Translations under genes and position numbers: made by a program | Notes under the pieces: model-generated | Database searches by the model: none | The model's input: only the letters and a program-made list of their open reading frames with translations | Told to the model about the DNA's origin: nothing | Origin: Candidatus Omnitrophota bacterium | Lineage (GTDB): Bacteria > Omnitrophota > Gorgyraeia > Gygaellales > JBFMHM01 | Direction: 5' to 3' | Length of the DNA: 64,000 nt | Assembly: GCA_040753015.1 (NCBI GenBank) | Contig: JBFMHM010000007.1 | Coordinates: 2,076-66,075 of the forward strand | Shown here: positions 11,267 through 35,684 of the stretch, piece after piece | Numbering within the stretch: position 1 is the first letter of the stretch | Layout of the letters: every line of letters starts with the position of its first letter

Positions 11267-12517
11267 TCATTCCTTTAATAAATATTTCCACGCAGGAATA
11301 ACTTCTATCATTTGGCCTGCTTCCTTCAGCATCCTCTCATTATCCTTAGAAATAACAGATATTTTTTTGTTTTTCGGAAATCTTTTTAAAAAAAGCCTTA
11401 AGCCATCAAATTTTTTGTCTTTCAGGTTAATTTCGGATTGATATTTAACTTCTACCGCACCTAGAACATGAAAATTACTAAATACAAAATCAATCTCCTT
11501 TTCACTTTCTGCAAAATAACCTATTCTGGGCTGTTTTTTAAAAAGACATAGAAATACCGCATTTTCCACTTTTACACCTAAATCACCTTTTCCTGTTAAA
11601 ACGGTTTTTATTCCACTATCAAAAAGGTAATTCTTTTTTTGTGAATATACCCGTTCATTATAAGATGTTGCCCATTTTTCAAGCGGCTTAATTAAAAAAG
11701 ATGCTTCCAAATACCCAATATATTCCTTAACTGTATCAACTGCGATTCCTAATATATTGCCAAGTTTATTAAAACTTGTCCGCGAACCAACAGAGCTAGC
11801 TATAAGCATCAAAAGATCTTTTAAAACAGATATACGTTTTATACTATGTAACCTAACAATATCTCGCACTAGAATATCATCTATCAAATTATTCAAATAA
11901 TCATCTGAAGGATGAAGCGCATTTTCAGGATATCCTCCCCGCATAAGATACTCCTCAAATAGAGCTTCAAATTTATAATCCTCAGACTTTGAAGGTAATT
12001 CTTTTTTAAAAGAAAGATATTCTTTAAAATTTAACGGATATATCACTGTAACGATTTGCCGGCCCGCAAGCCTTCCCTCTTGCCTTTTAATTAAAGAAGA
12101 TGTAGAACCGCTGCAAATTATTTTAACATTTTCTAAATCATACATCGATTTTAGCTCTATCTCCCAACCAGGAGTTTCCTGTATTTCATCCAAAAAAAGA
12201 TAAAGTTTTTTTGAACGCGAATGCATAAAAATTTTTCTAAATAATTTAAGGTGTTCCGTAATGGTAGTTTTAGATAAACGTGGATTATCAAGGCTTAAAT
12301 AAATAATATCTTTTGCCGGAATATTTTTGTGTAAGCACCATTTTATTAGCTGTTTTATAATTGTAGTTTTACCAACCCGCCTTGACCCAATAATTATATC
12401 TATTTGCTTACGGCTAAAAATTTTTTCTATTTTACCTAAATAATCTGTTCTTTGTATGCCACATTCAAATTTTTTATTCTCCCACCAAGGGTTAAAAGCA
12501 TAATACAAATCCTCCAT
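11267..12517 (-). CDS. AAA-family ATPase with DUF4143-like C-terminus (416 aa)
   Basis: Walker A 'IIIGSRRVGKTTIIKQL' and Walker B 'LFLDEIQ'. The architecture matches the widespread AAA_14/DUF4143 'ATP-binding protein' family. Confidence 0.8.
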   Translation of the reverse strand: MEDLYYAFNPWWENKKFECGIQRTDYLGKIEKIFSRKQIDIIIGSRRVGKTTIIKQLIKWCLHKNIPAKDIIYLSLDNPRLSKTTITEHLKLFRKIFMHSRSKKLYLFLDEIQETPGWEIELKSMYDLENVKIICSGSTSSLIKRQEGRLAGRQIVTVIYPLNFKEYLSFKKELPSKSEDYKFEALFEEYLMRGGYPENALHPSDDYLNNLIDDILVRDIVRLHSIKRISVLKDLLMLIASSVGSRTSFNKLGNILGIAVDTVKEYIGYLEASFLIKPLEKWATSYNERVYSQKKNYLFDSGIKTVLTGKGDLGVKVENAVFLCLFKKQPRIGYFAESEKEIDFVFSNFHVLGAVEVKYQSEINLKDKKFDGLRLFLKRFPKNKKISVISKDNERMLKEAGQMIEVIPAWKYLLKE

Positions 12518-12612: not shown

Positions 12613-15600
12613 TCAACTAATTAAAGGTTGGATCTGAATTAGGCTTAAGTCAATACCCCCTGGGTCTGGTTGGATTTCCGTAGGAACACCCTGTGCCTGT
12701 TCAATAGACACTCTATCGCCAGCCACTGTTGCAACATATGCCTCTGCGCGCTCAACTAACGTAGGTTCAGCTTGACCAGTGCGTTCGGTAATTTCTGTTG
12801 GCGATGCACCAACTTGCCTAAGTAGCTGCTCTATTGGATTGCCTGATCTACCACCTTGAACCAATGTTAATCTTGACGGTGGATTTTTAGAATCCGAACT
12901 ACCTGGTTCGTTTCCTGATTCTAGATTAGGATCTAGTGCTTCGGACGCTAACACGCCTAACCTAATTAATTGTGGAATACATTCTGCATCGCCATGATAT
13001 CCTTGCCATTGGCCTTCGTAAAGCGAAAGATGCATCTGTCTATTAATATCTAGAGCAACAATAAAACTTATATTTTTATACTTACCCCAAAGAAATTCAG
13101 CTCTAGAATTATCTTCGTCGCTTGGCTTAACATTATGACCTTCTTCGGGATGATAATGTCCCTGGACATCCTCTATCTGCGATAAAACTCCATTGTAATG
13201 ATGATAATCACCTAGGATTTCATTAACTGAATCAAAATTTCCTGATACACATAATAATATAGTTTCTTTACCTCTTCTTATAACTCTAAAACCCTTTTCT
13301 ATAGCCATTGCGGTAGACAAGATATCTCTAAATTGCGCAACTGTTAAGCTCTTAAGAACAACTATTCTATGTTCAATTCCACTAGGCATTACCAATGATT
13401 TTCGATCTAAGGATTGTTCTATCTTACCCAATAAATCTATCAGCATATCAACTCCTTTAACTCTTTTTCTAGCCTCCTCTATTATTAATTCGCCTATTAT
13501 ATTTGAAAAAATTTCCTTATCTTCATCGATAAATATGCCGTTTTTCCCATAAACATCATTTTGAAATCTTTCAATTATTCTCGCTATCAAAATTTTTAAA
13601 TCTCTCTCATATCTTTTAGTTTTAGTACTAGGATTATCGAGATTTAATCGAATAGCCAATAATAACTCATTTCTGAATATCTCAATAACGCGCTGCATTG
13701 CTTGTTCCCTCTCTCTTTTTGGTATATCACTAGAATGGGTATTATCCAGCAGAGGCCACATTAATTCATCGCTATATTCAATATCACTACAGTCAACACT
13801 TACATCAGTGCCATCATCGAATTTAATCTCTATCATTTTACTACCAAATAAATCTATCCAATTAATTACTCCCTCTTTTCCATTAAATAAAACGCGATCT
13901 CTCTTATGATATAAAATACCCTTAATCGTTAAAGAATCTGCCAGCCCTACACCTGCCGCGGGATTTATTTCCGTATCTGCCACTTCCACACTTGGTGCTT
14001 CTTCACTTGTAGCACAGCTATATTTTGTAAGTAATGGCTCAACATTGTAAGATCGATTTGCTTGTGCATGCAGGCGATTATTTTGTGCATGAGTGATGTG
14101 ATTGCGACGATCAGCGCCGGTGTAATACTGTAATTCAGCATCCCATCCTTGTGCTTCTGTTATTTCATGGCCAAGGACTGTTTGATATTCTGGATTGCTT
14201 TCTCCTAAATTAAATATCTCTTCGTCCATATACACTACAATTTGCCCATAGCTTGCGCCTAAACCAATGTGGCCAAGCTGGCCAGCTGATGAGCCGTCGG
14301 GATGTTTTAGTTCTTTTAAGCCTTTTACTGGGATAATATAAATACCGTTTACTTCTCGAACTAAGCCCTGTTTTTCTGCTGCTTTTAAAGCGGCTAACCG
14401 TCTCGCCCAAAGCCTTGCATCGCCTTCGCCAGGGTTTCTTTCAATATACACTGCCTCTGGAATATTCCTTATACCTTTATCATCTTTACCTCTAATATGC
14501 TCACTTAGCTTTGAGTTAGGCAGCAACGCACCAGAGCCAGCTGCGGGGTTAGTGTCGTCTTTACTGAATCGCACTAAGAGTCTCTTTACCAAATCTGAAA
14601 TCCTCGTTAATATTGATTGTCTATGTCCATACCACAGTTTTAAGTTTGTAATTGAATACTTTGAATCTGCTGGAAAGTTCTCTTGAATTTTTTGTGTAAT
14701 ATTAGCTTTTTTACTAGTGAGTTTTACCATTGCTACATTGATATTAACACGATTAGAGCCTGTGCTATCGCTTACAGCTACTAACACTTGTTCATAGCCG
14801 TTTTTTTGTGCTATTTCTTGGGTTAATTTATTAAGTAACTGTTCTACGAAAGCCTCTGCATTAAGCCTATTTGCAAGAGGAGTCCTTGGCTCAATACCAA
14901 CTATAACTAAAGACTTTTTGCCATTTATAATTAGAGTAAGCGTATATATTGAACCAACAATTCTGCCGTTTTCAATTATTCTGATTGGAGTAAAATTAGG
15001 ATTAAGTAGTTCTTGCGGATAATCTTTTGTACAGTCTTCTCCAAGGTAACCAAAGAAGTAATCTAGTGATGTTTTTGCCGGAATAAATTCAAGATCTATA
15101 ACTTCTGTTCCTTGTTCGGTTGTTATTCTTTGTTTAACAATGCCGGCTACGCGGGTTAGGCCGCTTACCTCGTCAATTACTTGCCTTGTTTCAATATTTG
15201 CTTCTGGTTTTATTTCAGTGAGAATTTCTTTTAAGGTGTATAAGTTTTGCGCGGTTAAAGGATTATCTAGGCTAATTGCATCTAGGGTTTGTTTTAAATG
15301 TGGATTAACAATTAAAACTAATGTTAGCATAAGATCTAAAGAACCTTGAACTTGTTTAATAGTTGGAGTGCCTGAAGCATGTTGTGTATTTAAGGTGATA
15401 ATTTCTTTTATTATCGCGGGATAATCTATTGTTGCGGCATTGGCAGTTAGATATGTTTGGATTTCTTGTTCTATTAGAGAATAATTTCTTTCTTTAGGGG
15501 CTTTTGCTAGTTCTTCTTGTATAGCTGATTGAGTTTGTAAACTAACAACTAAGGCTCGTAAGTTTTCAGGTAATTCATCTAATCTTTGTAATTTAATAAA

Positions 15601-18600
15601 TCTCTCAGTAATTAATTTTGCTAACACCTCTGGTGGAGCTCTTTGAGATAACTGCTTAAGATGGGTAAGCTTTTCTCGGACAAAGGCCTCTTCTTCAGTA
15701 GTTATTCCTTGAAGAACCAATATTCCTGAATATGCCTGCATTGTAAAAGAAGTTGTAAAGTTTGGTTGTGGTATTACTTCATTTTTATATCGTTCTCTTG
15801 TAGAACGATAGGTTTCAAGAGGAAGATTAGTTGAGCCGACAATAGACAGATGCGTTTCTTCTATCAGCTCGTCATCAATAAGGCCTTGTTCTGGTTCGGT
15901 ACCTTCAATAAATGAATCATAATAGAGCTTATAGTTAACTATAAGCCTAGCCCGTTCTTGGCCTTGTAATTGCTTAAACCTAGCGTATAGCTTAGATAGA
16001 TATAAGGATATTTCAAATTGGCTAAAATACCTGCTTATTAAATTTAATTCTTTCTGGATATTCTCTGGAGTAAGTGTTCTTAAGAATGCGTTGTTATTCT
16101 CTAAATTTGCCCCTGATTGCCTGAAGAATCTAATTAATAAATTATAGGTGTTTTCTTCTTTTAACTGCTCTAAGGTAAAGCCATTATTAAGAAGAATTAA
16201 TAATGCCCTTGCTACTGGTGCTTCTTTAAGATTAGTTTCTCTGCAAACTTTGGTTAAAAATTTATCCATCTCATTACTTACTTCATTAACTAATGTTTTA
16301 TCTGCCGTGGTAAGCGTCTCTGCCACAGCTTGAGCAATAGAAGCGAAAGTTTTGGCTTGCAAGTAAGGATCATTAGGGAGTTTTTCTGCTGCGGCAATAG
16401 CTTTAGCAAAAACAACAGCTGCTTCTTGTTCTGGCCTACCTGCTTGTGCCACAGCTTGAGCAATAGAAGCGAAAGTTTGGGCTTGCAAGTAAGGATCATT
16501 AGGGAGTTTTTCTGCTGCTAAGGCAAGGGCTTGTTCAAACCTACCTGCTTGTGCCATAGCTTGAGCAATAGAAGCAAAAATTTGGGCTTGCAAGGAAGGA
16601 TTATTAGTGAGTTTTTCTGCTGCTAAGGCAAGGGCTTGTTCAAACCTACCTGCTTGTGCCACAGCTTGAGCAATAGAAGCGAAAGTTTTGGCTTGCAAGT
16701 AAGGATCATTAGTGAGTTTTTCTGCTGCTAAGGCAAGGGCTAAACGCAAAATTAAATTCTGTTTATGAGCTAATTTTTTAACGATTACTTGTTCATCATC
16801 TGCAACTGTAGCTACTCCTGCCGCGGGATTTGTTTCATTATCTACCACTTCCACACTTGGTGCTTCTTCACTTGTAGCACAGCCGTATTTTGCAAGTAAT
16901 GGCTCGACATTGTGAGTTTGATTTGCATTAGTGTGCAGGCGAGTATTTTGTGCGTGAGTGATGTGATTACGACGATCTGCTCCTATGTAAAATTGTAATT
17001 CAGTATCCCAACCTTGTGCTTCTGTTATTTCATGGCCAAGGACTGTTTGATATTCTGGATTGCTTTCTCCTAAATTAAATATCTCTTCGTCCACATACAC
17101 TACAATTTGCCCATAGCTTGCACCTAAACCTATGTGCCCAAGCTGGCCTGCTTTTGTACCGTCAGGATGTTTAAGATCTTTTAAACCTTTTACGGGAATG
17201 ATGTAAATACCGTTTACTTCTCGAACTAAGCCTTGTTTTTCAGCTGCTTTTAAAGCGGCTAACCGTCTCGCCCAAAGCCTTGCATCGCCTTCGCCAGGGT
17301 TTCTTTCAACATAGACTGCCTCTGGAATATTTCCGCGTTTAGCAATATGTTTACTTAACTCTGAATTAGGCAGCAACGCACCAGAGCCTGCGGCGGGGTT
17401 GATGGAAGATTTAAATGCTGTAACTTCATGATCAAGTCGTACAAGAAAGCTATCTTTCTCTAATAAATCTGTAAGAAAAATGCCTTTTGGGCTGTTTAAA
17501 ATCTCTCCTAAAAGATTAGAATCATGTATTAAAAGCCATCTTACAAAAGCAGCCGAGACAAAAATTTTTCCCTGATCCACAAAACTTATAGCAACCCCCG
17601 TTTCTGCGTCTTCAAAAATAAAATCTACATCTTTTAATAATACAACCTCTGAAGCTCTGTCTCCTAATGATTGAATAACATCCCTAAAGCCAGCGATCAT
17701 ATTATCATTAAAACCAAAATCACACCTTAATCTATTTTGGGAATCTCTAGGTTCTAAGGGCCTGAAAGTCGTTCTTTCAGGAAGAGGGTCTAGATAATCT
17801 ATAAAAGGCTCATATAAAACGATATTTCCTTCTCTAACAACAGCTCCACATGCTCTATTACGCCTTAAAGAATCGGCGATTTTTCGTTGAGCATGATTGC
17901 TGAGTGCCCTTACCTGGCGAGACCAAAGAAATTCACAAATAAATGAACCGAGCAGATCGGATAAGCGATGTCGTAAAATAGAATCGTCCAACTTAGCCCT
18001 CTCTAAATCTACCAACCTCTCTAAATCTGCCGGGCTTCTCCTTAAGATCCAAATCAAAAATTCTTCACTAATCCAAAATCTATTATCCCTAAAATGACTC
18101 ACGATAGCACTGCGTTTTTCTGAATCGTAATAAATAAATGGTCTAGATCGCAAAATAGCTAAAGATATCCCTCGGCTACGTAAATATGTTAAGAATAACT
18201 CAACTCGTCTTTTATCTAAATCGCCAAATTGAATCCCTTCTCCTTCTGGAATAATCCTTCTCACCCTAAAGCCTACTCGGCTAACCCTTGGGATAGATGT
18301 TTGAACAAGCTGATTATCGCTTCCTAAGCTCAATTCAAGAGCTTTTTCTACACCGTTTTCAACAGCACTAGCTAAAATAGAAGATATTTCTGCTTCGTAT
18401 TGCACAGTATCTTCATGAGCTACTTCGTCTTGCGGCCCTTGAACATTTTCTCTTTCTAAACCTAAGCCTTCTTCAACACTGTCTTCCTCTGCTAAGACAA
18501 TCGAAGCTAAGTCGGCTAGTTCGCTATCAGATAAATTTAATGAAAAATTCACTTTTAACTGGCGTAGTAAAATTATTAGTATTTCGTTAGGCAAAGAACC

Positions 18601-20016
18601 AGTCTTATCCCCCTGTAAACATGAAAGTTGATCTCTGTAAATTTCTAGACTCCTCTTATCAAGAGGCACTCGGCCTGGACTACTTTTATTAGACATAAGT
18701 ATAAGAATTACCTTTCCTATCATTTGTTTTTTGATTGTTCTAAGAGCAGCAAAAAACTTTAAATTATTCAATTTAACCTCGGGATACGAAAGTAATCGGG
18801 TAATCGCTACTCCTGCTGCCTCTTTAATAATACCAGCTTGTTTTCCATGTATTTTACCTAGAAATAACAAAGAGTCTCTAATGTTTGAGCTACCTCTAAA
18901 CATAATGCGAATCATAAGAACTACACCGGCTAACTTATTAAGTTCATCTAGTATTTCTTGGAAGTTCAATTTAGTATATATATGCCACATCTGGTCATAA
19001 GACATATTCAAACTTCCCGCTTGAAGGCGAACATAAACCTCTGGTAATGCTTTCTCTATTTGAAATGTTGTAATTGATTTTGCACCCGGAGAAGCTAAAT
19101 CTGAATCTTCAAAATAAGTACTCAGCATCATTTCTATTAAAAACTTTTTAGCAATACTTCTTTCAGTAGGACTAAGTTCCGACATAAAACTAATATCTAA
19201 TCTATCTGCTACACTCTGAATAACCTGACTTTTACTTAATAAACAACGTTGAAGATATCTTGAAAGTTTTTCTCGTGCTTCTGATGACCTATCTTCTAGC
19301 ATATGCAGTGGAACACGAATAATTCCATCTTCCGAAATAGCAAATTCGGTTAATTCAATATCAACTAGCAGAATTACTAAGCCTGAGCATTCATTTTCTA
19401 ACCAAGGATATAATTTAATGGCTTTCTTCAATACATCCTCAAAATAATCTAATTTTTCTTTCACAATAAGAATAGTGGCTGTGGAATCACGCGTGCCCTC
19501 TCGCTTTAATTTATTTGCGCTCATTCGATATTGAGCAAAATTTACATTAGATTGTTGTTGTCTTAATAATTCAGCTCTTACTCTTAAAGCTGTAAGGGCA
19601 TTTTCTTGCCCTGCACCAGCACGCATAGCTTGATATCCAAAATAGAACAAACGGATATACTCCCATGGATTAATGTAAGAATTATCTTGCTGGCCAACCG
19701 AAGCCGTTTGGACTTGTATTTCTTTGGTAATTTCACTAATACCAAAGATAAAAGTTAAGTAATCTTTTTCTTTTTGACTGCGCTCTTTATCAGGCGCATA
19801 ATTTGCTAAATTTCTTTGCTCATCAGACAACGGAACCCCCCAACCTAATTCTTTATTTGCCCAAAGAGCCGTATCCATCTGTTCTCTGCTTGACTTAAGC
19901 GAAACAGCCTGACAATTTGATTCAATCATTTGGATAAAACTAATTTCTGGATTAATAATAAAAACTGTTCCATTATCTAAAACCACCTCAAATGCAACTG
20001 TTTCCTTGCCGCGCAA
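12613..20016 (-). CDS. Giant protein (2467 aa), function unknown. It has an internal ~200-aa duplicated module, four 35-aa TPR-like tandem repeats, and two copies of a 'GHEITEAQ' module. No N-terminal signal peptide.
   Basis: Single uninterrupted ORF in the track. The repeats are visible at both protein and nucleotide level. One region is shared with the neighbouring 1319-aa protein ('AAFVRWLLIHDSNLLGEIL' vs 'EAFLKYLLNHDSKLLEDIF'). Confidence 0.85.
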   Translation of the reverse strand: MRGKETVAFEVVLDNGTVFIINPEISFIQMIESNCQAVSLKSSREQMDTALWANKELGWGVPLSDEQRNLANYAPDKERSQKEKDYLTFIFGISEITKEIQVQTASVGQQDNSYINPWEYIRLFYFGYQAMRAGAGQENALTALRVRAELLRQQQSNVNFAQYRMSANKLKREGTRDSTATILIVKEKLDYFEDVLKKAIKLYPWLENECSGLVILLVDIELTEFAISEDGIIRVPLHMLEDRSSEAREKLSRYLQRCLLSKSQVIQSVADRLDISFMSELSPTERSIAKKFLIEMMLSTYFEDSDLASPGAKSITTFQIEKALPEVYVRLQAGSLNMSYDQMWHIYTKLNFQEILDELNKLAGVVLMIRIMFRGSSNIRDSLLFLGKIHGKQAGIIKEAAGVAITRLLSYPEVKLNNLKFFAALRTIKKQMIGKVILILMSNKSSPGRVPLDKRSLEIYRDQLSCLQGDKTGSLPNEILIILLRQLKVNFSLNLSDSELADLASIVLAEEDSVEEGLGLERENVQGPQDEVAHEDTVQYEAEISSILASAVENGVEKALELSLGSDNQLVQTSIPRVSRVGFRVRRIIPEGEGIQFGDLDKRRVELFLTYLRSRGISLAILRSRPFIYYDSEKRSAIVSHFRDNRFWISEEFLIWILRRSPADLERLVDLERAKLDDSILRHRLSDLLGSFICEFLWSRQVRALSNHAQRKIADSLRRNRACGAVVREGNIVLYEPFIDYLDPLPERTTFRPLEPRDSQNRLRCDFGFNDNMIAGFRDVIQSLGDRASEVVLLKDVDFIFEDAETGVAISFVDQGKIFVSAAFVRWLLIHDSNLLGEILNSPKGIFLTDLLEKDSFLVRLDHEVTAFKSSINPAAGSGALLPNSELSKHIAKRGNIPEAVYVERNPGEGDARLWARRLAALKAAEKQGLVREVNGIYIIPVKGLKDLKHPDGTKAGQLGHIGLGASYGQIVVYVDEEIFNLGESNPEYQTVLGHEITEAQGWDTELQFYIGADRRNHITHAQNTRLHTNANQTHNVEPLLAKYGCATSEEAPSVEVVDNETNPAAGVATVADDEQVIVKKLAHKQNLILRLALALAAEKLTNDPYLQAKTFASIAQAVAQAGRFEQALALAAEKLTNNPSLQAQIFASIAQAMAQAGRFEQALALAAEKLPNDPYLQAQTFASIAQAVAQAGRPEQEAAVVFAKAIAAAEKLPNDPYLQAKTFASIAQAVAETLTTADKTLVNEVSNEMDKFLTKVCRETNLKEAPVARALLILLNNGFTLEQLKEENTYNLLIRFFRQSGANLENNNAFLRTLTPENIQKELNLISRYFSQFEISLYLSKLYARFKQLQGQERARLIVNYKLYYDSFIEGTEPEQGLIDDELIEETHLSIVGSTNLPLETYRSTRERYKNEVIPQPNFTTSFTMQAYSGILVLQGITTEEEAFVREKLTHLKQLSQRAPPEVLAKLITERFIKLQRLDELPENLRALVVSLQTQSAIQEELAKAPKERNYSLIEQEIQTYLTANAATIDYPAIIKEIITLNTQHASGTPTIKQVQGSLDLMLTLVLIVNPHLKQTLDAISLDNPLTAQNLYTLKEILTEIKPEANIETRQVIDEVSGLTRVAGIVKQRITTEQGTEVIDLEFIPAKTSLDYFFGYLGEDCTKDYPQELLNPNFTPIRIIENGRIVGSIYTLTLIINGKKSLVIVGIEPRTPLANRLNAEAFVEQLLNKLTQEIAQKNGYEQVLVAVSDSTGSNRVNINVAMVKLTSKKANITQKIQENFPADSKYSITNLKLWYGHRQSILTRISDLVKRLLVRFSKDDTNPAAGSGALLPNSKLSEHIRGKDDKGIRNIPEAVYIERNPGEGDARLWARRLAALKAAEKQGLVREVNGIYIIPVKGLKELKHPDGSSAGQLGHIGLGASYGQIVVYMDEEIFNLGESNPEYQTVLGHEITEAQGWDAELQYYTGADRRNHITHAQNNRLHAQANRSYNVEPLLTKYSCATSEEAPSVEVADTEINPAAGVGLADSLTIKGILYHKRDRVLFNGKEGVINWIDLFGSKMIEIKFDDGTDVSVDCSDIEYSDELMWPLLDNTHSSDIPKREREQAMQRVIEIFRNELLLAIRLNLDNPSTKTKRYERDLKILIARIIERFQNDVYGKNGIFIDEDKEIFSNIIGELIIEEARKRVKGVDMLIDLLGKIEQSLDRKSLVMPSGIEHRIVVLKSLTVAQFRDILSTAMAIEKGFRVIRRGKETILLCVSGNFDSVNEILGDYHHYNGVLSQIEDVQGHYHPEEGHNVKPSDEDNSRAEFLWGKYKNISFIVALDINRQMHLSLYEGQWQGYHGDAECIPQLIRLGVLASEALDPNLESGNEPGSSDSKNPPSRLTLVQGGRSGNPIEQLLRQVGASPTEITERTGQAEPTLVERAEAYVATVAGDRVSIEQAQGVPTEIQPDPGGIDLSLIQIQPLIS
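13940..14555 (-). repeat. Intragenic segmental duplication, copy 2 (~610 nt, ~90% identical to 16800-17405)
   Basis: Both copies encode 'NPAAGSGALLPNS..LWARRLAALKAAEKQGLVREVNGIYIIPVKGLK.LKHPDG..AGQLGHIGLGASYGQIVVY.DEEIFNLGESNPEYQTVLGHEITEAQGWD.ELQ.Y.GADRRNHITHAQN'. Confidence 0.85.
16310..16745 (-). repeat. Four tandem ~105-nt repeats encoding 35-aa TPR/HEAT-like units
   Basis: Unit 'gcttgtgccacagcttgagcaatagaagcgaaagttttggcttgcaagtaaggatcattag.gagtttttctgctgc...' at about 16315, 16443, 16551 and 16650. Encoded unit: 'EQALALAAEKL(T/P)NDPYLQAQ(T/I)FASIAQA(V/M)AQAGRF'. The antisense ORFs 16290..16499 and 16330..16521 are artefacts of the repeats. Confidence 0.85.
16800..17405 (-). repeat. Intragenic segmental duplication, copy 1
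   Basis: Long near-identical nucleotide runs, for example 'ccacttccacacttggtgcttcttcacttgtagcacagc' in both copies. Confidence 0.85.
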
Positions 20017-20177: not shown

Positions 20178-23100
20178 TTAATTCGGGTGATCGATCTTGG
20201 GGGTTATTTTTTTTGCCTCTAATTCATCGCAGAGTGTTTTGCCTGGCATACTTGTTGAAGAAATTGTAGCAAGATCTTGTAATACTAAAAGGCGTTCTTT
20301 GACTTCATGATAAAGAACTTCTTTTAATTTTGGTGGGGCTCTAAGATGGTTAACATTAAGATAAATCTGCCTGCGGCCTAAAGCATAGTGATCATCTCCA
20401 TTATAAAAAATAATGTCTGTATCTTTAAGTGCCTGCCCTAACCCTAGCTCATCGATTGTATCTTGTAGAAGTTTTAACTGCTCTTGTGATAATTGTATAT
20501 CTTGTTCTCTTATACTAATTACCTCACCTTGCTTGCGTGTTTTTCCGTCTGATTCAATAGTTGCATCTAATTTAAAATCAACTTGGCAAGTTTTGCCACT
20601 TTGCGCATCATACCTTGCCGCTGCAATTTCATTTTCTACGATTGCCTTTTGTATACCAGGTGTATAATCCACGTTCCTGCCATGCCTAAATCCTCGGTGA
20701 TCAGACATTGAGCTACCAGGATTCATAGCTAAAAGCTGTTGAGCAGTTGTGACAACATCTATATTATCACTTCTTATTTTCACCAACTTTGCACTTCTTG
20801 GGTCATCGGTAAAAACAATTCGCCCATCATAAAAATACAACTCACCAGTTAATGGACACACTAAAATCCCTACACCAGTTGGGAAGTGACTATTGGATAG
20901 TCCAACATCCAAACCAGAATATTTTCCTACCCAATAATTACTTAGTGTCTTAGGATGAATATGCCACCACCCAATGGTAATTAATTGAGGTAAAGAATGA
21001 CCGCGCTGATCATTTAACTTATTTCGAAAAGAAGTTGCAGTCGATAAATAATCCATACTAAAAACAAGGCTTCCCGGGCCACGCGTTAATCCTTCATCGA
21101 CTGAATAAATATTTGTAATTACTAAAATATCACCATCACGATAGCCAAACAACAAGCCACCATATTCATTAACATCATTATTATGCGGGTCATTTAGAAG
21201 TTCCTGGCGAAGCCTATTATCAAATCGAACAGTCCGAATACCATCTAACCCTGACAAAGGATTAGTAAGTTCAAAATCTAATAATTCTCCATCATCACTT
21301 GAAGGTGGAAGCAAAAAATCCCCGCGGGGAGATTGATGGGCTGGCTGTGTAGGGTGAACTGCTGATAATTCTGCAGTAGGTGCAGGCATTGCTGGCGGAG
21401 GCAAAGGTTGAGATGCTGGGGGTTGTGCAACTGGCTTGGTCATAATTGCATCAGTTAATTTAGCTACAAGGCTTGTATGATCACTAAAAATATCCGCGGG
21501 TGTAATTTTTCCGCTTATTGATGCATCCTTTAAGATATCCTTTACAAAACCTCTAACCATTAAATATGTAAAAATCCTTTGGTCAAGCGGATAAAACCCC
21601 GGCCAAACAAAATTAAAAAATAAATGTCTCTCAGAAGTATACCGACGACCACCAACATGTCTAGTGCCTCCCTCATAAGCCGATTTTGTTTCTACACAAA
21701 CATCGTTTAGAATAAGCTGCGGTACAATTTTTGGCTGAGCCGCCAATACAGATTGTAATCGCGATAATAAATCCTTTAGCTCTACGTCAATTGTTTCTGC
21801 ATTTAAGCCGCGTACCCTCGCGATAACTTCTTCTGCAAAAGAAAGCGCTTCTTTGTAATCTAACTGGTGTAAGTACCGCATATCGGTAGTAACACCTAAA
21901 ATATCTGTAACAAGCTCTCTAGAAACATCAACGCCTGCGCCAACGAAAAACGCAGTCATTATCGAGCCTTGTTTTACAAGTACTTCGTTTGCAATTTTTG
22001 TTCCTAATCTCCAAATTAAATTAGAAGAATCATCGGAATCTATTTCAATTACAGAACCTAATTCTTCTGGCCCTACAACAATAGAAACTCTTCTTATCCC
22101 ATTTAACATTATTTTAAGACTTGCTATTTTATCTTCTATTCTTCTAGCCCAATCACTCCAATCACTAGTATCAGTACTCATGACTAACCCAGGTCGTAGT
22201 TGAGCAACCGCTGTCCTAAGCCGTTGGCTTTCAGCCTGTTTTCTTTTAGCGCGTTCTTCAGGTGTTATAGATAATTTTTCTATAATATCATCTAACATAC
22301 GCTTTACTGGCCTATTCTGACTAGCATCAAATGATCCTGGAAGTATTACAGTAATTCCCGTCATTTTTCTAATTGCTGCTTCAACCCTCTGTAAAAGTTC
22401 ATTGTAGTCGGAATCCGTATCATGAGAATAATCTGGTTCATTCAAATGACGAAGGTCGTGGCGGAAGATGTCTTCTAGAAGTTTTGAATCATGATTTAAA
22501 AGATATTTTAGGAATGCTTCTGTAAGCCAAATTCTTCTGCGTTCTTGGCTAAAGATACCGCCAGCTACTGTTGCACCTGCATGGGTATAGGCAAAAGATG
22601 CACTATCTTGAGGTTGATAAAGCACAGGGCCCCTGCGATCAAGGCCAATACGAAAACCATTAATTTCTCCCTGAGGCAGGCTAGCCCATATTCTAACAAG
22701 TTCTCTTTGCTCTCCCTCTGTAAGATTTACTGCTTCTTGCCTAGTTAATTCACGAAGATTATCAACTGCATTATTTGGCATATTCCTTTGCACAATTCGT
22801 CCATCCTCAAAGCTCAACTCTACTACCGCGCTTGGGCCAACTGCAATTGCTGCTCTAAGATGCGGATTCACCTCTCTATTATTATCCGCATTGCCGATGT
22901 TAACAATATCACTTCTCGGCAATCGCCCCACCTCACTAACTGTTGCAGTCCGCTGGACAGAAAGCTCTCCAGTTTGCGCAAAAAGCATACCACCACTTGT
23001 GTAAGTTCTTTTAATTTTACGATTTAATTCTTTTTGATCTTGGGTATCTATAAGTTTATATTCGCCTTTTGTTGAGTTTAGGTAAGATTTATAAATTTGC

Positions 23101-24137
23101 TCTGGTTTAAATTTAAGATTATTGGTTTTTTGATAAGAATTTATTAATTGTTTTAACTTTTCGTTTTTCTCTTTACTCTTTACGCTTTTTTTGTACCACT
23201 GGGCGAGAATGAGTGCTTGATAAATTTGTCTAAGTGGTTCATAGGCTTTGTCTTGGTTTACTCGTTGAGTTAGTTCTGGGAGTATCAGTTGTTTTAGTTG
23301 AGATTCACAATATTCCTGTAGTTCTTCAGTTCGTTTGTCATTAGAAATTGGGATTTGGGATTTCTCAAGGTATTCGCTTTCTAGAAGCACCTTGAGCGTT
23401 GCTTTAACTATTGTAATTGAATCTTTAGTTTCGTAGACTTTAGCTTCATCAGGAACTATCCAGACGCGGAAGGTGGTAGGAATAGATACAGTTCGACTGT
23501 TCGTCAGTTCTTCGGTTCTTAGGTTTTGATTTTCATTTTGATTTTTGGTTTGTATATTTGATATTTGATATTTGATTTTTGATTTTTCTAAAGCTTTAGC
23601 CTTAGAAAACACTCTTTCCCAATAGGTTTTAGCATTTTTACCATAACCGGGTAATAATTCAAAGGCTGTGTCTTTCTTTAGTTTTAGGTCTAATACTAAA
23701 AGCGCTTTACCTAGGTCAGTGTCAGCAATTGAGTTACCGATGATTCTGCTTGGATCGTTTGGATTTAGGTTAACCCAAAGGTCTTTGTAGTCTATAGATA
23801 GGCTAGTAAAGAAATAATCTAGAAGCTCTTTACTTTTAAGCTTCTTCTGTTGTTCTGATATGTTGCGAGGAAGAAAGTTGAAATTAAAATTAAACCCAGA
23901 ATTTAGAGAAAGCGAAACGAATGTTGCATTTGGTTCGGGGACTTTAAGGCTAACAGCTTGGCCAAAGCTAATACTCTGGCAAAGAAATGTAAATGCCAAA
24001 AATAGACAAAAAATCCTTCTTGTAAGACTTATTTTATTCATTATAAATTTTTTGAAAAAGTGGACAAAAAATAACCCCTCACATATGCTTGGGGGTCGCC
24101 AGACTTCGTCGAACTCTGACGAGATATGTTTATTCAT
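20178..24137 (-). CDS. Giant secreted protein, function unknown, with a JAB/MPN (JAMM-like) domain near the C-terminus and a C-terminal 'YHEV' module. Annotated as 1319 aa from the track's first Met; the probable true start at the internal Met (24041) gives about 1287 aa with a signal peptide.
   Basis: An internal Met at about 24041 begins a classic signal peptide, 'MNKISLTRRIFCLFLAFTFLCQSISFGQA'. An MPN core 'EYGGLLFGYRDGDILV...GWWHIHP...YSGLD' lies at about 20880-21180. There is a low-complexity NQNENQN stretch at about 23530-23600. Confidence 0.85.
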   Translation of the reverse strand: MNKHISSEFDEVWRPPSICEGLFFVHFFKKFIMNKISLTRRIFCLFLAFTFLCQSISFGQAVSLKVPEPNATFVSLSLNSGFNFNFNFLPRNISEQQKKLKSKELLDYFFTSLSIDYKDLWVNLNPNDPSRIIGNSIADTDLGKALLVLDLKLKKDTAFELLPGYGKNAKTYWERVFSKAKALEKSKIKYQISNIQTKNQNENQNLRTEELTNSRTVSIPTTFRVWIVPDEAKVYETKDSITIVKATLKVLLESEYLEKSQIPISNDKRTEELQEYCESQLKQLILPELTQRVNQDKAYEPLRQIYQALILAQWYKKSVKSKEKNEKLKQLINSYQKTNNLKFKPEQIYKSYLNSTKGEYKLIDTQDQKELNRKIKRTYTSGGMLFAQTGELSVQRTATVSEVGRLPRSDIVNIGNADNNREVNPHLRAAIAVGPSAVVELSFEDGRIVQRNMPNNAVDNLRELTRQEAVNLTEGEQRELVRIWASLPQGEINGFRIGLDRRGPVLYQPQDSASFAYTHAGATVAGGIFSQERRRIWLTEAFLKYLLNHDSKLLEDIFRHDLRHLNEPDYSHDTDSDYNELLQRVEAAIRKMTGITVILPGSFDASQNRPVKRMLDDIIEKLSITPEERAKRKQAESQRLRTAVAQLRPGLVMSTDTSDWSDWARRIEDKIASLKIMLNGIRRVSIVVGPEELGSVIEIDSDDSSNLIWRLGTKIANEVLVKQGSIMTAFFVGAGVDVSRELVTDILGVTTDMRYLHQLDYKEALSFAEEVIARVRGLNAETIDVELKDLLSRLQSVLAAQPKIVPQLILNDVCVETKSAYEGGTRHVGGRRYTSERHLFFNFVWPGFYPLDQRIFTYLMVRGFVKDILKDASISGKITPADIFSDHTSLVAKLTDAIMTKPVAQPPASQPLPPPAMPAPTAELSAVHPTQPAHQSPRGDFLLPPSSDDGELLDFELTNPLSGLDGIRTVRFDNRLRQELLNDPHNNDVNEYGGLLFGYRDGDILVITNIYSVDEGLTRGPGSLVFSMDYLSTATSFRNKLNDQRGHSLPQLITIGWWHIHPKTLSNYWVGKYSGLDVGLSNSHFPTGVGILVCPLTGELYFYDGRIVFTDDPRSAKLVKIRSDNIDVVTTAQQLLAMNPGSSMSDHRGFRHGRNVDYTPGIQKAIVENEIAAARYDAQSGKTCQVDFKLDATIESDGKTRKQGEVISIREQDIQLSQEQLKLLQDTIDELGLGQALKDTDIIFYNGDDHYALGRRQIYLNVNHLRAPPKLKEVLYHEVKERLLVLQDLATISSTSMPGKTLCDELEAKKITPKIDHPN

Positions 24138-24294: not shown

Positions 24295-25524
24295 TTAAAA
24301 TTGATAATTCGGCTTATATACAAACTGACGGCCGTGTTTAGATTTAACAAGAATTCCCTTTACGACCAAATCCTCAAGATCATGACGTGCAGTTTCATAA
24401 ACAACCTTAAACCAACCTTCATAGGCCTTAATAATTATCATCCTTTTATCACTTACGAGAAATTTTTTAAGAAATTTATCCTGGCGCTCATTAAGCAGAA
24501 TCCCTTTTTCTCTTAGCTTAACAAAAACAAACTCACGTTGATAATGTTGAGCGATTCGCTCACTAACAAGCCGCATAGACTCTAAAATTGTATCCGATAG
24601 ATACAGTAAGAAATAAGTCAAATCAGCATTGCAATCTTCTACATCTTTAATGGCCCTGTAATACTGTATTTTTGTCTTCTGAACAACCGCTGATATAGAA
24701 AAATATTTAAAAAATTCATATCCGTGTTTAATCATAAAATAATAGAACAACGCCCGTGCAGTCCGGCCATTACCATCGAAAAATGGATGAATATAAACAA
24801 AATAAAAATGGATAAAAGACGCTCTAATTATAGGATGAATAAAACGCTCATCATCTTTACTATTAACCCACTCAACTAGTTTTCTCATTGCTGGTTCAAT
24901 CTGCTCTGCCTTAGGCGGCGTATAAATTATAATATCGCGCCGCTTGTCTTTAATATAAACCATATCATCACGGAAGCGCCCAGCATAAGCTTCATCTTCA
25001 AAAAGAGTTTCTTTAGTCACAATTTTATGCAATTGCAAAATAAAATCTAAAGATAATTCTCTATGCTTCTCTTGCAAGATAAATTGCATAGCCTTATAAT
25101 TATTTAAAACCATTTGATCATTAATATCTATAGGCGATTTTTTTTCTTCTACTAATTCACGTAAACGCTTCATAGTTGAGAAAGCCCCTTCAATAACACT
25201 TGAATAAAGCGCTTCTTCTATTAACGAATCTTTCACGAGTTCATTTTCAATTTCTTTCTTAACAACCCGATATAAAGAATCTTTACCACTCGAATCTATT
25301 TCGTAAATTCTTTTCTGTAATATTGGCGTTAAAAAATACCAAAAATTTTGATTATTTTGATCTATAAACGGCAAGCCCTCTGATTTCTGTTTTCTAAACT
25401 TAATTGCCTCTTGCCAAAACTCCTCTAAAGATAATTCGTTCGGAAGCCTATAACCAATTTCTTCTTTAGATAGATAACCTTGAACAGAAAATTTATTTAT
25501 AAATTCATTTATATTAGTATTCAT
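24295..25524 (-). CDS. fic: Fic-family protein (AMPylase-type), 409 aa
   Basis: Canonical Fic motif 'HPFFDGNGRTARALF'. It sits immediately upstream, on the same strand, of the giant secreted protein. Confidence 0.85.
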   Translation of the reverse strand: MNTNINEFINKFSVQGYLSKEEIGYRLPNELSLEEFWQEAIKFRKQKSEGLPFIDQNNQNFWYFLTPILQKRIYEIDSSGKDSLYRVVKKEIENELVKDSLIEEALYSSVIEGAFSTMKRLRELVEEKKSPIDINDQMVLNNYKAMQFILQEKHRELSLDFILQLHKIVTKETLFEDEAYAGRFRDDMVYIKDKRRDIIIYTPPKAEQIEPAMRKLVEWVNSKDDERFIHPIIRASFIHFYFVYIHPFFDGNGRTARALFYYFMIKHGYEFFKYFSISAVVQKTKIQYYRAIKDVEDCNADLTYFLLYLSDTILESMRLVSERIAQHYQREFVFVKLREKGILLNERQDKFLKKFLVSDKRMIIIKAYEGWFKVVYETARHDLEDLVVKGILVKSKHGRQFVYKPNYQF

Positions 25525-30081: not shown

Positions 30082-30702
30082 TTACTTATGATTACCCTTC
30101 AAATATGGTTTTATCGCCTTTAGTACGCGCTGGCTCATTAACCTATAGCCCTCAGCGTTAGGATGGACGTAATCGGATTTTAATTTGGGTTGCGTAAAGA
30201 TACCATCTAGGATATTCGGAACTAAAATTGTATTATATTTTCTCGAAAGCCTTCGGTAGATTGATGAGTATTCCCCCATTACAAGCCCAGCTCTAGTTTC
30301 AACTAAAGCAATAATCGCTCCACTTGACTTGATTTGCTTAATCATTTCCTCTAAATTCTTATAAGTATCTTCCAGCGACATCTTCTCTAGGTAGTCATTA
30401 CCTCCAAATTCAATAATAACTAGATATGGGTTTTTCTCTAAGACATCGGTTTTTATACGCTTTAGTCCTTCAGTTGTACTCTCACCACTCATCCCTGCAT
30501 TAATTACCGGATAATTTACTTCTTTAGCTAACAAACTCGGGTAAGAAAATTTTGGCTCGACCCCTTCGCCTGCGGTTAAACTGTCTCCATAACAAATTAT
30601 ATTTTTCCCTTTTGAATTAAGATTAGATATTTTTGACTCACACGCAGTTAAATTGATAACGTAAAAACACAATAAACTTATAATTAATATTTTATTTTTC
30701 AT
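30082..30702 (-). CDS. GDSL/SGNH-family lipase/esterase lipoprotein (TesA-like)
   Basis: Lipobox 'LTACES' and GDSL block 'ICYGDSLTAGEG'. Confidence 0.75.
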   Translation of the reverse strand: MKNKILIISLLCFYVINLTACESKISNLNSKGKNIICYGDSLTAGEGVEPKFSYPSLLAKEVNYPVINAGMSGESTTEGLKRIKTDVLEKNPYLVIIEFGGNDYLEKMSLEDTYKNLEEMIKQIKSSGAIIALVETRAGLVMGEYSSIYRRLSRKYNTILVPNILDGIFTQPKLKSDYVHPNAEGYRLMSQRVLKAIKPYLKGNHK

Positions 30703-31711
30703 ATATTAATTTTAACTGGCCGCAAGCGGCTTCAATATCTTGCCCGCGCGGCCTTCTTACGGTTACATTAACCCCCCGATTTTTCAGCTGGTTAAAAAAA
30801 CTAGAAATTTCTTTCTTATCCGGAGGAATCAACCCAAACCCCGGAATCATATTATACACTATTAAATTAATTTTTGCGTCAAATCCTTTTAGGATTTTAG
30901 CTAAATTTTTTGCATCTTGCAAGGAAGAATTTATGTCTTTAATTAAAACATATTCAAAAGTAATTTGGCGGTTAGTGTTCTTGTAGTAATCTTTACATGC
31001 TGCAATTAATTTTTCTAAAGGATAGATTTTATTCACTGGCATTAATTTTTCTCTAATTTTATCGGAAGCAGCATGCAAAGAAACTGATAACTCAACTTGT
31101 AATTTTTCATTTGCTAGTTTATTAATTTGCGGTATTAAACCACAGGTTGAAATTGTAATTTTACGCGCGCCAATATTTAAGCCATTCTTATCGTTAATAA
31201 TCCTGATTGCTAAAAGTAGATTATCGTAGTTATCAAGCGGCTCACCAATCCCCATAAAAACAATATTACCAAGATCTTTTCTATAATCTTTTAAATATAA
31301 GATTTGGCTGACTATTTCACCGCTGGTTAAATTTCTTATAAACCCTGATTTTCCGCTTGCACAAAACAAACATTTATATTTACATCCAACCTGAGTGGAA
31401 ATACAGAAAGTTATTCTTTTATCAACTGGGATAATCACGGATTCAATTGAATTATTATCTTCTAACCTAAAAAGAAATTTTTCTGTCTTATCTTCTGATC
31501 TAAACTTATCTATTAATTCTATCTTGCTAAAATATAGATTAGCTCTAAGCAACTCTTTAAGAGCCTGTGAAAGATTCGTCATCAAAGCAAAATCTTCATT
31601 ACGTTTTTGATATATCCAAGAAAATATTTGCCTAGCGCGAAAAGCTGAATGCCCCTTTTCAATAAGAAATCTCTCTAAGTTTATTAATGTTAAATTTTTA
31701 ATGTCTTGCAT
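30692..31711 (-). CDS. rlmN: 23S rRNA/tRNA A-C2 methyltransferase RlmN (radical SAM)
   Basis: 'CISTQVGCKYKCLFCASG' CxxxCxxC cluster in an RlmN-typical layout. Confidence 0.85.
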   Translation of the reverse strand: MQDIKNLTLINLERFLIEKGHSAFRARQIFSWIYQKRNEDFALMTNLSQALKELLRANLYFSKIELIDKFRSEDKTEKFLFRLEDNNSIESVIIPVDKRITFCISTQVGCKYKCLFCASGKSGFIRNLTSGEIVSQILYLKDYRKDLGNIVFMGIGEPLDNYDNLLLAIRIINDKNGLNIGARKITISTCGLIPQINKLANEKLQVELSVSLHAASDKIREKLMPVNKIYPLEKLIAACKDYYKNTNRQITFEYVLIKDINSSLQDAKNLAKILKGFDAKINLIVYNMIPGFGLIPPDKKEISSFFNQLKNRGVNVTVRRPRGQDIEAACGQLKLIYEK

Positions 31712-32177
31712 TATTATTTATAAGCTCTATTCCGTGGATCAATACCGGTAAAATCAACGGCATAATTTGTTCTATCGCCTTTGGATTACCGGGTAAATTA
31801 ATAATTATACTTTTTTTTCTAATGCCTGATACTAAACAAGAAAGCATCGCATTTCGATTATACTTTAAACTTTTAAAACGTATGAATTCACTGATGCCGG
31901 GCAGCTCTTTGTCAATTATTTTCCTTGTTGCTTTGGCTGTTACATCTCTTAACCCTATACCTGTTCCACCAGTTGTAAGAACAATATTTATATTTAGCTC
32001 GTCTGTCATATGTTTGATTCGTTGAATAATTTTTTTTTCTTCATCAGCAATAACTTCATATTTTTTTATAGATAATTTTCCGCCTTCTAAAATTTTTCTA
32101 ATTTTTGGACCGCTTAAATCTTTATAGATACCAGAGGAAGCCCTGTCGCTTATCGTAATAATCCCAGCGCTAATCAT
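31698..32177 (-). CDS. mogA: Molybdopterin adenylyltransferase-type protein (MogA/MoaB family)
   Basis: 'LTTGGTGIGLRDVT' GGTG motif, about 160 aa. Confidence 0.7.
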   Translation of the reverse strand: MISAGIITISDRASSGIYKDLSGPKIRKILEGGKLSIKKYEVIADEEKKIIQRIKHMTDELNINIVLTTGGTGIGLRDVTAKATRKIIDKELPGISEFIRFKSLKYNRNAMLSCLVSGIRKKSIIINLPGNPKAIEQIMPLILPVLIHGIELINNNARH

Positions 32178-32596
32178 ATTATAACCCTATCGCCTATTCT
32201 TATAAGGCCGCCTTTTAAAACTTTTGTAAAAACGCCTTTTTTTGGCATAATACACTCGCCTAATTTTTTCTTAACCTCACACTGGTTATGACAAGTTTTT
32301 CCAATTTGAGTAACTTCTAAAAGACTACCAGAAATTTTTATTTTATCGCCGATATTTAATTTTGATAAATCAATATTTTTTGTAGTAATATTTTCAGCAA
32401 AGTCTCCGGATTTTAATTTATAAGATTCTATTATCTCTATAGGCAACAAACTAACCTCTCGGTGCATAAAGCCTGCGTGGGCATCACCAACTATCCCAAA
32501 ATCTTCCTTTAATTCCGCACATTTTATCGGGGTTTTGGACGTGCCTTTTTCTTTACTTATATTGATTGAGAATACTGTTGCCTGATTTTTATTCAT
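32174..32596 (-). CDS. MOSC-domain protein
   Basis: About 140 aa beta-barrel-like protein with a conserved Cys near the C-terminus, sitting in the Moco operon. Confidence 0.55.
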   Translation of the reverse strand: MNKNQATVFSINISKEKGTSKTPIKCAELKEDFGIVGDAHAGFMHREVSLLPIEIIESYKLKSGDFAENITTKNIDLSKLNIGDKIKISGSLLEVTQIGKTCHNQCEVKKKLGECIMPKKGVFTKVLKGGLIRIGDRVII

Positions 32597-33114: not shown

Positions 33115-33541
33115 TATTTTTTAAACTAAAATCGCGCTTGCCGCCGCTTTTCTTAATTAATCTAATATCAGAAATTACCATCTTATTATCAATACTTTTT
33201 GCCATATCATATATAGTTAAAGCACAAATTGAAACCCCAGTCAATGCTTCCATTTCAAAACCAGTTTTATCACTGCCACGAACACAACAATATATCTGTA
33301 TTGAATCATTATTAAATTTATAATTTATACCGATAAAATTAGTTTTTACCGGATGGCACATTGGAATTAAATTCTGGGTTTTTTTAACCGCTAAAATTGC
33401 AGCGGTTTTCGCTGTAATAAGCGCATCCCCCTTGACTAAACGGCCTGTTTTAACTTTGGCTATCGTATTTTTTCCGGCATAAATAGCTGCACTAGCAATA
33501 GCTAATCTTTTCGTTTCTTTTTTATTGGTAATATCTATCAT
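33089..33541 (-). CDS. moaC: Cyclic pyranopterin monophosphate synthase accessory protein MoaC
   Basis: 'GFEMEALTGVSICALTIYDMAKS' MoaC signature. Confidence 0.85.
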   Translation of the reverse strand: MIDITNKKETKRLAIASAAIYAGKNTIAKVKTGRLVKGDALITAKTAAILAVKKTQNLIPMCHPVKTNFIGINYKFNNDSIQIYCCVRGSDKTGFEMEALTGVSICALTIYDMAKSIDNKMVISDIRLIKKSGGKRDFSLKNNDLLTTIL

Positions 33542-35682: not shown

Positions 35683-35684
35683 AA

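Follow-up and report, generated by a model that had tools for sequence, protein, structure and literature searches.

A strongly diverged JAB/MPN-like domain in a modular, predicted exported protein of a Candidatus Omnitrophota bacterium

In a 64,000-nucleotide stretch of contig JBFMHM010000007.1 (assembly GCA_040753015.1, Candidatus Omnitrophota bacterium), hereafter the window, we analyzed a long reverse-strand gene whose product carries a JAB/MPN-like domain at residues ~965–1135 (~170 aa), and which joins this domain to a predicted signal peptide and to an N-terminal module found mostly in other Omnitrophota proteins. Enzymes of the JAB/MPN (JAMM, MEROPS M67) superfamily are known to act in the cytoplasm, as isopeptidases in ubiquitin-like systems and, in bacteria, in cyclic oligonucleotide-based antiphage signaling systems (CBASS) and related anti-phage systems. 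From the profile and alignment evidence given below we consider a JAB fold in this region highly probable and its catalytic competence probable. The full reading that we favor, i.e., a strongly diverged prokaryotic JAB/MPN domain of the Cap3-like branch that would be a catalytically competent zinc metallo-(iso)peptidase and the cargo of an exported protein, has in our judgment slightly better than an even chance of being correct. Residue numbers throughout are those of the 1319-codon maximal open reading frame (ORF), and the coordinates of all features are collected in Table 1.

The initial annotation had read an MPN+ domain here from three elements, E-x2-G-x-L-x-G, H-x-H-P and S-x-x-D, and all three are present within window positions 20880–21180; the unusual 12-residue distance that it counted between the His and the Ser is also correct, with H1061 and S1074 separated by residues 1062–1073. 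The composite motif occurs once among the six-frame window ORFs of at least 100 aa and in 0 of 300 residue-shuffled ORF sets (~24,000 residues), and the resemblance thus exceeds chance. The S-x-x-D element alone is weak evidence, since by a rough estimate it would arise by chance about 1 time in 10 within the ~25 residues after HxHP. The region around the putative zinc-binding His residues is matched in more depth, with G1056, W1058, H1059, H1061 and P1062 all falling on invariant columns of the family pattern G-x-W-H-T-H-P.

At the level of sequence profiles, JAB-type models were the only families that matched the domain in three of the four libraries searched, and all of them did so in the same register, with the model Glu on E991 and the zinc-binding His residues on H1059 and H1061. 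For example, the PADLOC JAB model PDLC00890 matches the domain with E = 3.2e-6, and PADLOC adds six more JAB-only models, one E1-E2 model and two that represent JAB-containing fusion proteins; NCBIfam contributes 6A-MBL cap2_3 (E = 3.5e-5), TIGR02256 (E = 8e-4) and Cap3 (E = 0.018); and Pfam JAB (PF01398) matches the domain, scanned by itself, with 17.5 bits (E = 0.0037), whereas the score for the whole protein is 13.8 bits. Prok-JAB (PF14464) was absent from the Pfam scan even at E up to 10, PHROGs gave no family match on the domain, and no non-JAB family was found on it in Pfam at E up to 10 or in PADLOC and NCBIfam at E up to 1. A phmmer search of PDB sequences returned two top matches, both with E about 0.1, to the Cap3-like peptidase 9ild_A and to an unrelated Rieske protein; 9ild_A is the best PDB match that is a JAB protein, and its alignment pairs ESGG with EYGG and WHTHP with WHIHP. 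The best plasmid match by tblastn, itself weak (E = 0.6), was to an annotated Mov34/MPN/PAD-1 gene located beside a ThiF gene.

For a direct comparison we used a hidden Markov model (HMM) of 20 diverse Cap3-like JABs of plasmid and genome origin, the majority of them encoded beside E2/UBC or ThiF genes. The domain (205 aa, residues 941–1145) scored 19.9 bits against this model (E = 2e-8, for a single comparison), whereas the best of 2000 shuffles scored 6.8 bits and the reversed sequence −2.2 bits. With hhalign, the alignment of the same 20 sequences matched the domain at 95.8% probability (E = 6.7e-9) over 123 columns, covering domain residues 30–158, i.e., from the strand before helix 1 through the strand after the catalytic helix. 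The comparator family is a true JAMM family, because its profile (from alignment A2, in which our query is one of 17 rows) finds AMSH-LP, Rpn11, BRCC36 and CSN5 in the PDB, along with Sst2 and archaeal JAMM1.

A fortuitous resemblance, in which the motif and the weak profile matches would lie on a region of some different fold, would be consistent with scores that fall under the curated cut-offs of Pfam and NCBIfam, with the lack of homologues and with a low-confidence AlphaFold model that has no JAB fold match. We nevertheless consider it very improbable: the HMM score stands far above the maximum of the shuffles and is accompanied by the high hhalign probability, three libraries together place more than 10 models of JABs or of JAB-containing proteins, including seven JAB-only PADLOC models, on the same residues in the same register, and both the Pfam scan for other families and the shuffled ORF sets came back empty.

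Whether the putative zinc site is complete turns on the residues that follow HIHP. The His-to-Ser spacing is 12 here vs 7 in the comparator JABs (n = 20; 8 in two), i.e., the canonical H-x7-S-x2-D arrangement is not what the sequence contains, and all the library and HMM profile alignments end right after HxHP, because the loop there is five residues longer than that of the family. Deleting exactly five residues anywhere within 1063–1073 raised the HMM score from 19.9 to 22.6–24.9 bits and carried the alignment through P-S-x-x-D; deleting three, four or six loop residues brought no gain. The MAFFT alignment A2 opens a five-residue gap unaided and places S1074 and D1077 on the invariant Ser and Asp, so that the domain matches all nine positions (E, G, G, W, H, H, P, S and D) that do not vary among 16 Cap3-like JABs, which argues for retained constraint. 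In contrast, hhalign and MAFFT --add prefer an ungapped register in which the Ser and Asp columns are occupied by W1069 and K1072, and this register would leave the zinc site without a third ligand. We favor the insertion register, in which S1074 and D1077 would be the family Ser and Asp, as rather likely, since an orphan at 15–22% identity has kept every other invariant residue, and MPN-minus domains usually lose the Glu and His. The MPN+ assignment of the initial annotation thus stands as a JAB-like domain at the level of profiles, and its catalytic completeness is plausible if the Ser and Asp are aligned with a five-residue insertion.

The same alignments bear on a second explanation, an MPN-minus-like pseudo-enzyme that would have kept the JAB fold, lost the Ser/Asp half of the zinc site and come to serve as an interaction or tail-binding module. 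Inactive MPN domains are common in eukaryotic complexes (e.g., Rpn8 and CSN6), and such a protein would account for the ungapped hhalign and MAFFT --add alignments, where W1069 and K1072 take the places of the Ser and the Asp, for library matches that all stop just past HxHP, and for a spacing of 12 where 20 of 20 comparator JABs have 7 or, rarely, 8. We consider it unlikely, if a serious candidate, in that an S-x-x-D lies exactly five residues downstream, on the invariant Ser and Asp of A2 and with a gain of 5 HMM bits; in that MPN-minus domains usually lose the Glu and His as well, and every invariant family residue is present here; and in that retention of E, G, G, W, H, H and P by chance would be improbable in so divergent an orphan.

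Searches for relatives of the domain itself returned little. By tblastn it has no match in phages and two weak matches only in plasmids; neither the six-frame window ORFs nor the 89 proteins of the host protein family contain a paralogous JAB, and a homologue search seeded with a 9ild fragment yielded one partial JAB only (P0090). Several further results, together with the spacing, the truncated alignments and the ungapped register described above, count against a competent, exported JAB enzyme. The Pfam JAB score of 17.5 bits lies below the 22.5-bit gathering threshold of that family; an exhaustive phmmer search of the domain against 1.84 billion representative proteins found the host protein itself only, and neither a word-index search of 5.8 billion clusters nor a scan of JGI metagenome contigs found a relative. 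The single-sequence AlphaFold model of residues 941–1145 has a predicted local distance difference test score (pLDDT) of 37.7, and a Foldseek search with this model, which is uninformative at such confidence, returned no JAB structure. No E1, E2, ubiquitin-like or CD-NTase gene is present within ~20 kb, i.e., there is no nearby substrate candidate. To our knowledge JAB enzymes are cytoplasmic, and the literature searched holds no precedent for JAB activity in an exported protein. In our view the domain call is credible and its context unusual, and a single orphan sequence with sub-threshold database scores makes it a lead and not an established finding.

The host protein is recorded at NCBI as ‘hypothetical protein AB1755_05820’ (P0001 in our set), with 1287 aa, from a Candidatus Omnitrophota bacterium metagenome-assembled genome (MAG). 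The record begins at M33 of the maximal ORF (MNKISL…, window 24041), and this Met is probably the true start, because all homologues begin at the equivalent Met and have their signal peptide there. The predicted signal peptide, which was called by a heuristic and not by SignalP, combines a positive n-region with a hydrophobic core and ends in small residues at −1 and −3; its core is the sole Kyte-Doolittle peak in the host protein, there is no further hydrophobic or transmembrane (TM) segment, and the same layout is present in 19 other family members that we inspected. The earlier proposal that this protein is exported or secreted is borne out to this extent, i.e., by a canonical Sec-type signal peptide that is conserved across the family, and we regard export as likely on these features. 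G+C content at third codon positions (GC3) is even along the host gene, JAB segment included, and recent horizontal acquisition of the segment was rejected because GC3 is uniform along the gene.

Only the N-terminal module of the host protein has detectable homologues in number. All 88 homologues of the whole protein, mostly from Omnitrophota, align solely to residues ~40–420, and past this module the family members are unrelated to one another. For example, a paralogue from the same MAG (P0002) shares 73% identity with the host protein across the module and then, abruptly, no similarity. Precomputed Pfam domains that follow the module in homologues include HEAT, HD, radical SAM, PPDK_N, glucose-6-phosphate isomerase, triosephosphate isomerase, adenylate kinase, receiver, DnaJ, GNAT and NlpC/P60. 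RHS-repeat proteins and archaeal (Theionarchaea, Methanotrichaceae) TPR/PGF-CTERM proteins likewise contain the module, in their case at the C-terminus. It is marked by the motifs FWVNLxP, RVWIVPD, LKVxLExDYL, YAxLRQxYxSLILAxWFK and RxYFSGG (proteins P0002–P0089). An AlphaFold model from a 21-sequence alignment (pLDDT 78.9, predicted template modeling score 0.78) predicts long helices and two beta hairpins; it has no significant fold match by Foldseek in the PDB or BFVD, and a profile search of PDB sequences gave no match. The top Foldseek match, to the pore-forming toxin NheA, was not accepted (E = 0.085, template modeling score 0.11). The module has the look of a common chassis for export, anchoring or delivery, to which different cargo can be attached. 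Because homologues share the module alone and have unrelated C-terminal parts, the JAB-like domain is, as judged from these sequences, one of many interchangeable C-terminal cargo segments on a predicted exported chassis, and this conserved module with its exchangeable cargo may prove to be the finding of wider relevance.

Between the module and the JAB-like domain lie an orphan middle region and a proline-rich linker, and the domain is followed by a separate C-terminal region (Table 1). The middle region contains an SprT-like stretch (NCBIfam SprT, E = 0.021, residues 526–588, with HDLRH at 560–564), and the last ~120 residues of the host protein (with HEVKE at 1277) resemble only residues 1100–1211 of the family member P0026. 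We also observed a recurring pattern, G-[RQ]-[RQ]-I-x-[LVI] followed after 15–22 residues by H-[ED]-x-x-[EH], which is reminiscent of a degenerate SprT/zincin motif; it occurs in the host protein at residues 526–565 (window ~22443–22562, HDLRH) and 1250–1282 (window ~20292–20390, HEVKE), and elsewhere, in the forms HDALE and HEITE, at residues ~1150–1185 of P0026 and ~970–1000 of the neighboring giant ORF. A repeated zincin-like module across the protein was not upheld, as among these copies only the host C-terminus and P0026 are significantly similar.

This layout raises a further explanation, in which the domain would act in cis as a maturation or releasing peptidase that cuts its own polypeptide after export, for example at the proline-rich linker or before the C-terminal 175 residues, as releasing peptidases do in polymorphic and MARTX toxins. 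Self-processing was also the alternative that the initial annotation offered. The position of the domain, with a 40-residue proline-rich linker on one side and a separate C-terminal region on the other, would fit such a role, as would a family with swappable C-terminal cargo whose N-terminal module also ends RHS-repeat proteins. We know of no JAB that acts as a releasing peptidase. The next gene is the 2467-aa ORF and not a small immunity-like gene, the related C-terminal module is internal in P0026, where no relative of the JAB-like domain was detected, and in a domain without homologues no cleavage-site motif can be defined; we therefore regard self-cleavage as quite unlikely. In its favor, a proposal for Omnitrophota giant proteins is that their C39 and S8 peptidase domains cleave the proteins that contain them (bioRxiv 10.1101/2023.11.21.568195).

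If the domain is the zinc metallo-(iso)peptidase that we favor, H1059, H1061 and D1077 would hold the zinc ion, E991 would activate a water molecule as the general base, and S1074 would stabilize the intermediate as oxyanion partner. The loop that is five residues longer would lie beside the cleft, and it probably reshapes the substrate cleft and alters specificity. By analogy with Cap3, the target of cleavage would be a peptide or isopeptide bond in a protein substrate, at its C-terminal tail. The signal peptide of the family would carry it out of the cytoplasm, so that the site of action may be the periplasm, the cell surface or a target cell; since the domain is cargo on a module led by a signal peptide, it most likely works outside the cytoplasm of the producer. 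Omnitrophota are thought to depend on prokaryotic hosts and are inferred to prey on or parasitize bacteria and archaea (PMC10066038), and the substrate is therefore probably prokaryotic, either a host or prey protein or one of the family's own proteins, with eukaryotic ubiquitin unlikely. Our confidence in any specific substrate is low. The sequences themselves show the similarity to JAB profiles, the register of the Glu and of HxH, the modular build of the protein and the features of a signal peptide, and from these we deduce fold, zinc binding, activity, location and substrate.

Examination of the genomic neighborhood showed genes that are housekeeping or otherwise unrelated to the JAB protein. 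On the upstream side these encode Fic, ComEC, ComEA, LeuRS, a GDSL lipase, RlmN, molybdenum-cofactor (Moco) proteins and xanthine dehydrogenase, and on the downstream side the 2467-aa ORF is followed by an AAA_14/DUF4143 ATPase, BamD, LptE, HolA, MurJ, UvrC, a PilT-like ATPase, release factor 2 (RF2) and SecA. The domain does not belong to an operon for ubiquitin-like conjugation, and the frequency of promoter-like and terminator-like sites does not exceed that in shuffled sequences. The 2467-aa ORF has sub-threshold Pfam matches only, to Peptidase_M48 (E = 0.004, at HEITE near residue 995) and, faintly, to MpPF1 (E = 0.052), and no obvious signal peptide is present at its putative TTG start. 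The protein encoded by the Fic gene has an intact HPFFDGNGRTARA active motif and an autoinhibitory SSVIEG (SxxxEG) motif, weakly matches a winged-helix (wHTH) motif at its C-terminus, and has no signal peptide; from its sequence it resembles a common type of cytoplasmic Fic that is autoinhibited. SoFic is among the candidate defence genes of PADLOC.

The initial annotation had gone further and proposed, from the combination of export, JAB motif and adjoining Fic enzyme, a secreted deubiquitinase-like effector, which we take as one that would remove ubiquitin or a ubiquitin-like modifier in a eukaryotic host and work with Fic. In its favor are the match to the eukaryote-rich Pfam JAB model (E = 0.0037), the predicted export of the protein, the same-strand Fic gene (Table 1) and the SG(L/V)D form of the Ser/Asp motif, SGLD here, which we take to resemble the SGVD and SGID of Rpn11 and CSN5. 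The wider comparison does not support the proposal, and we consider it extremely improbable: the strongest matches are to bacterial Cap3-type JABs, Omnitrophota are inferred to rely on prokaryotic hosts, no ubiquitin-like, E1 or E2 gene is found within about 20 kb, and a Sec signal peptide alone gives no delivery into the eukaryotic cytosol. Nor does the Fic neighbor carry the weight placed on it, as it is SoFic-like, with the SSVIEG motif and the C-terminal wHTH match, and lacks a signal peptide; we see no functional link from it to the JAB protein, and the domain has no orthologues in which a JAB-Fic linkage could be compared.

Table 1. Features of the host gene, of the JAB/MPN-like domain and of the adjoining genes, with window coordinates.
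Feature	Window position	Strand	Basis or remark
Maximal ORF	20178..24137	(-)	1319 codons, window translation
Likely coding sequence	20178-24041	(-)	1287 aa, start M33
Predicted Sec signal peptide, residues 33-60	23958..24041	(-)	heuristic sequence features; MNKISLTRRIFCLFLAFTFLCQSISFGQA followed by V
Conserved N-terminal module, residues ~61-419	22881..23957	(-)	only part of the host protein with detectable homologues
Orphan middle region, residues 420-900	21438..22880	(-)	no Pfam match; weak SprT-like stretch
Proline-rich linker, residues 901-940, 29% Pro	21318..21437	(-)	directly before the JAB-like domain
JAB/MPN-like domain core, residues 970-1098	20844..21230	(-)	profile matches, hhalign
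EYGGLLFGY, residues 991-999	21167-21141	(-)	
E991, putative catalytic Glu in EYGGLLFG	21165..21167	(-)	aligned to invariant Glu of Cap3-like JABs, PDB 9ild_A
HIHP, residues 1059-1062	20963-20952	(-)	
H1059-I-H1061, putative zinc-binding His in G-W-W-H-I-H-P	20955..20963	(-)	aligned to family G-x-W-H-T-H-P
Loop, residues 1063-1073 (KTLSNYWVGKY)	20919..20951	(-)	between HIHP and S1074
SGLD, residues 1074-1077	20918-20907	(-)	
S1074-G-L-D1077, candidate catalytic Ser and third zinc ligand Asp	20907..20918	(-)	alignment A2
C-terminal region, residues 1146-1319	20181..20702	(-)	no Pfam match
2467-aa ORF directly downstream of the host gene	12613-20016	(-)	no NCBIfam or PADLOC family match
Fic gene, SoFic type	24295-25524	(-)	PADLOC 2e-50; 157 nt upstream of the host gene, same strand

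Three further observations concern other genes of the window. The AAA_14/DUF4143 ATPase gene (11267–12517, reverse strand), which lies just past the two long ORFs, matches the PADLOC candidate defence family PDC-S01 with E = 5.6e-87. A run of Moco genes on the reverse strand (30692–40198) encodes MogA-like, MOSC, MoaC, MoaA and MoeA proteins together with XdhC, a xanthine-dehydrogenase-type molybdoenzyme and its 2Fe-2S subunit, and MoaD and MoaE were not seen among the ORFs scanned. Finally, prfB, the gene for RF2, has the classical programmed +1 frameshift site (window 4465–4537, reverse strand), with an ATG at 4537, then AGAGGTTAT CTT TGA C; the frameshift sequence CTT TGA C lies at 4471–4465, and the main PCRF/RF-1 ORF continues at 4422–3433.

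The boldest interpretation that we entertain is that a Cap3-derived JAB isopeptidase is exported by predatory or parasitic Omnitrophota as an offensive or counter-defence tool that would act in or on the prey cell, which on the present evidence is very unlikely to be the correct account. One possibility under it is that the domain strips ubiquitin-like conjugates of prokaryotic immunity (CBASS Cap2, Bil-type systems or archaeal small archaeal modifier proteins [SAMPs]), and another is that it cuts isopeptide cross-links in the prey envelope; in either case the lengthened active-site loop would adapt it to a new substrate. If true, this would be the first JAMM-type enzyme to serve as a secreted effector and the first case of one microbe targeting the ubiquitin-like machinery of another. 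An intact domain would also make the poorly understood long exported proteins of Omnitrophota, which are believed to be directed at their hosts, accessible to enzymatic tests.

Of the systems with which the domain can be compared, Cap3, the CD-NTase/cGAS isopeptidase of CBASS (NF050170, PADLOC JAB, and 9ild_A, annotated ‘Peptidase’), provides its best sequence matches. Two reports (PMC10097602, PMC11153139) describe Cap3 as a zinc JAB isopeptidase that removes the C-terminus of the CD-NTase from its conjugates. As in Cap3, the ExGG-L-G Glu and the G-x-W-H-x-H-P strand align residue for residue, and all nine family-invariant residues are present if a five-residue loop insertion is allowed. Unlike Cap3, which is a free-standing, cytoplasmic protein of 150–170 aa, encoded beside E1 and E2 genes (Cap2, ThiF/UBC) and usually near CD-NTase/SAVED genes, the domain is embedded in a predicted exported protein of 1287 aa whose surroundings hold no such genes; its identity to Cap3-like JABs is 15–22%, its His-to-Ser spacing is 12 vs 7–8, and its score on NF050170 is 15.3 bits vs an equivalog cut-off of 200 bits. 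By sequence and context, i.e., embedded, without operon partners and far below this cut-off, the domain is not a Cap3.

The JABs that are fused to E1 or E2 proteins (NF058523 ‘6A-MBL cap2_3’, PADLOC E1-E2 PDLC00827) and TIGR02256 (ICE_VC0181) are matched at the same residues, and the fused forms show that this branch of JABs does occur inside larger proteins; their partners are E1 and E2 in cytoplasmic defence operons, whereas here the companions are a signal peptide, an uncharacterized N-terminal module and orphan sequence. With Rpn11, CSN5, AMSH/AMSH-LP, BRCC36 and JAMM1 (PF01398) the domain shares the motif logic E … HxH … SxxD. It differs from these eukaryotic and archaeal JAMM proteins in its PF01398 score (17.5 vs 22.5 bits), in its spacing (12 vs 7) and in a host organism that is prokaryote-associated, and the matches suggest that its closest relatives are bacterial Cap3-type JABs and not Rpn11 or AMSH.

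In its architecture, the host protein is like the proteins that carry releasing peptidases, such as polymorphic and MARTX toxins and the Omnitrophota proteins with C39 or S8 domains, in that a peptidase-like domain lies within a large exported modular protein and the C-terminal parts differ between paralogues. In those proteins the peptidase is of the cysteine, serine or zincin type, whereas the domain here is a JAB, which precedes a C-terminal region without toxin annotation and is followed by the 2467-aa ORF, with no recognizable toxin/immunity pair. Published long proteins of Omnitrophota mostly bear a signal peptide or TM segments and mixed enzyme domains, a description that the host protein fits, and the preprints on these proteins, with their supplement text, do not mention JAB/MPN domains. 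In the literature searched, the combination of a signal peptide, an Omnitrophota N-terminal module and orphan segments, and with it the probable location, is new for the JAB fold, and an apparently intact JAB copy in a Sec-exported modular protein, with an altered loop and without conjugation partners, would widen the range of sites and substrates of this fold.

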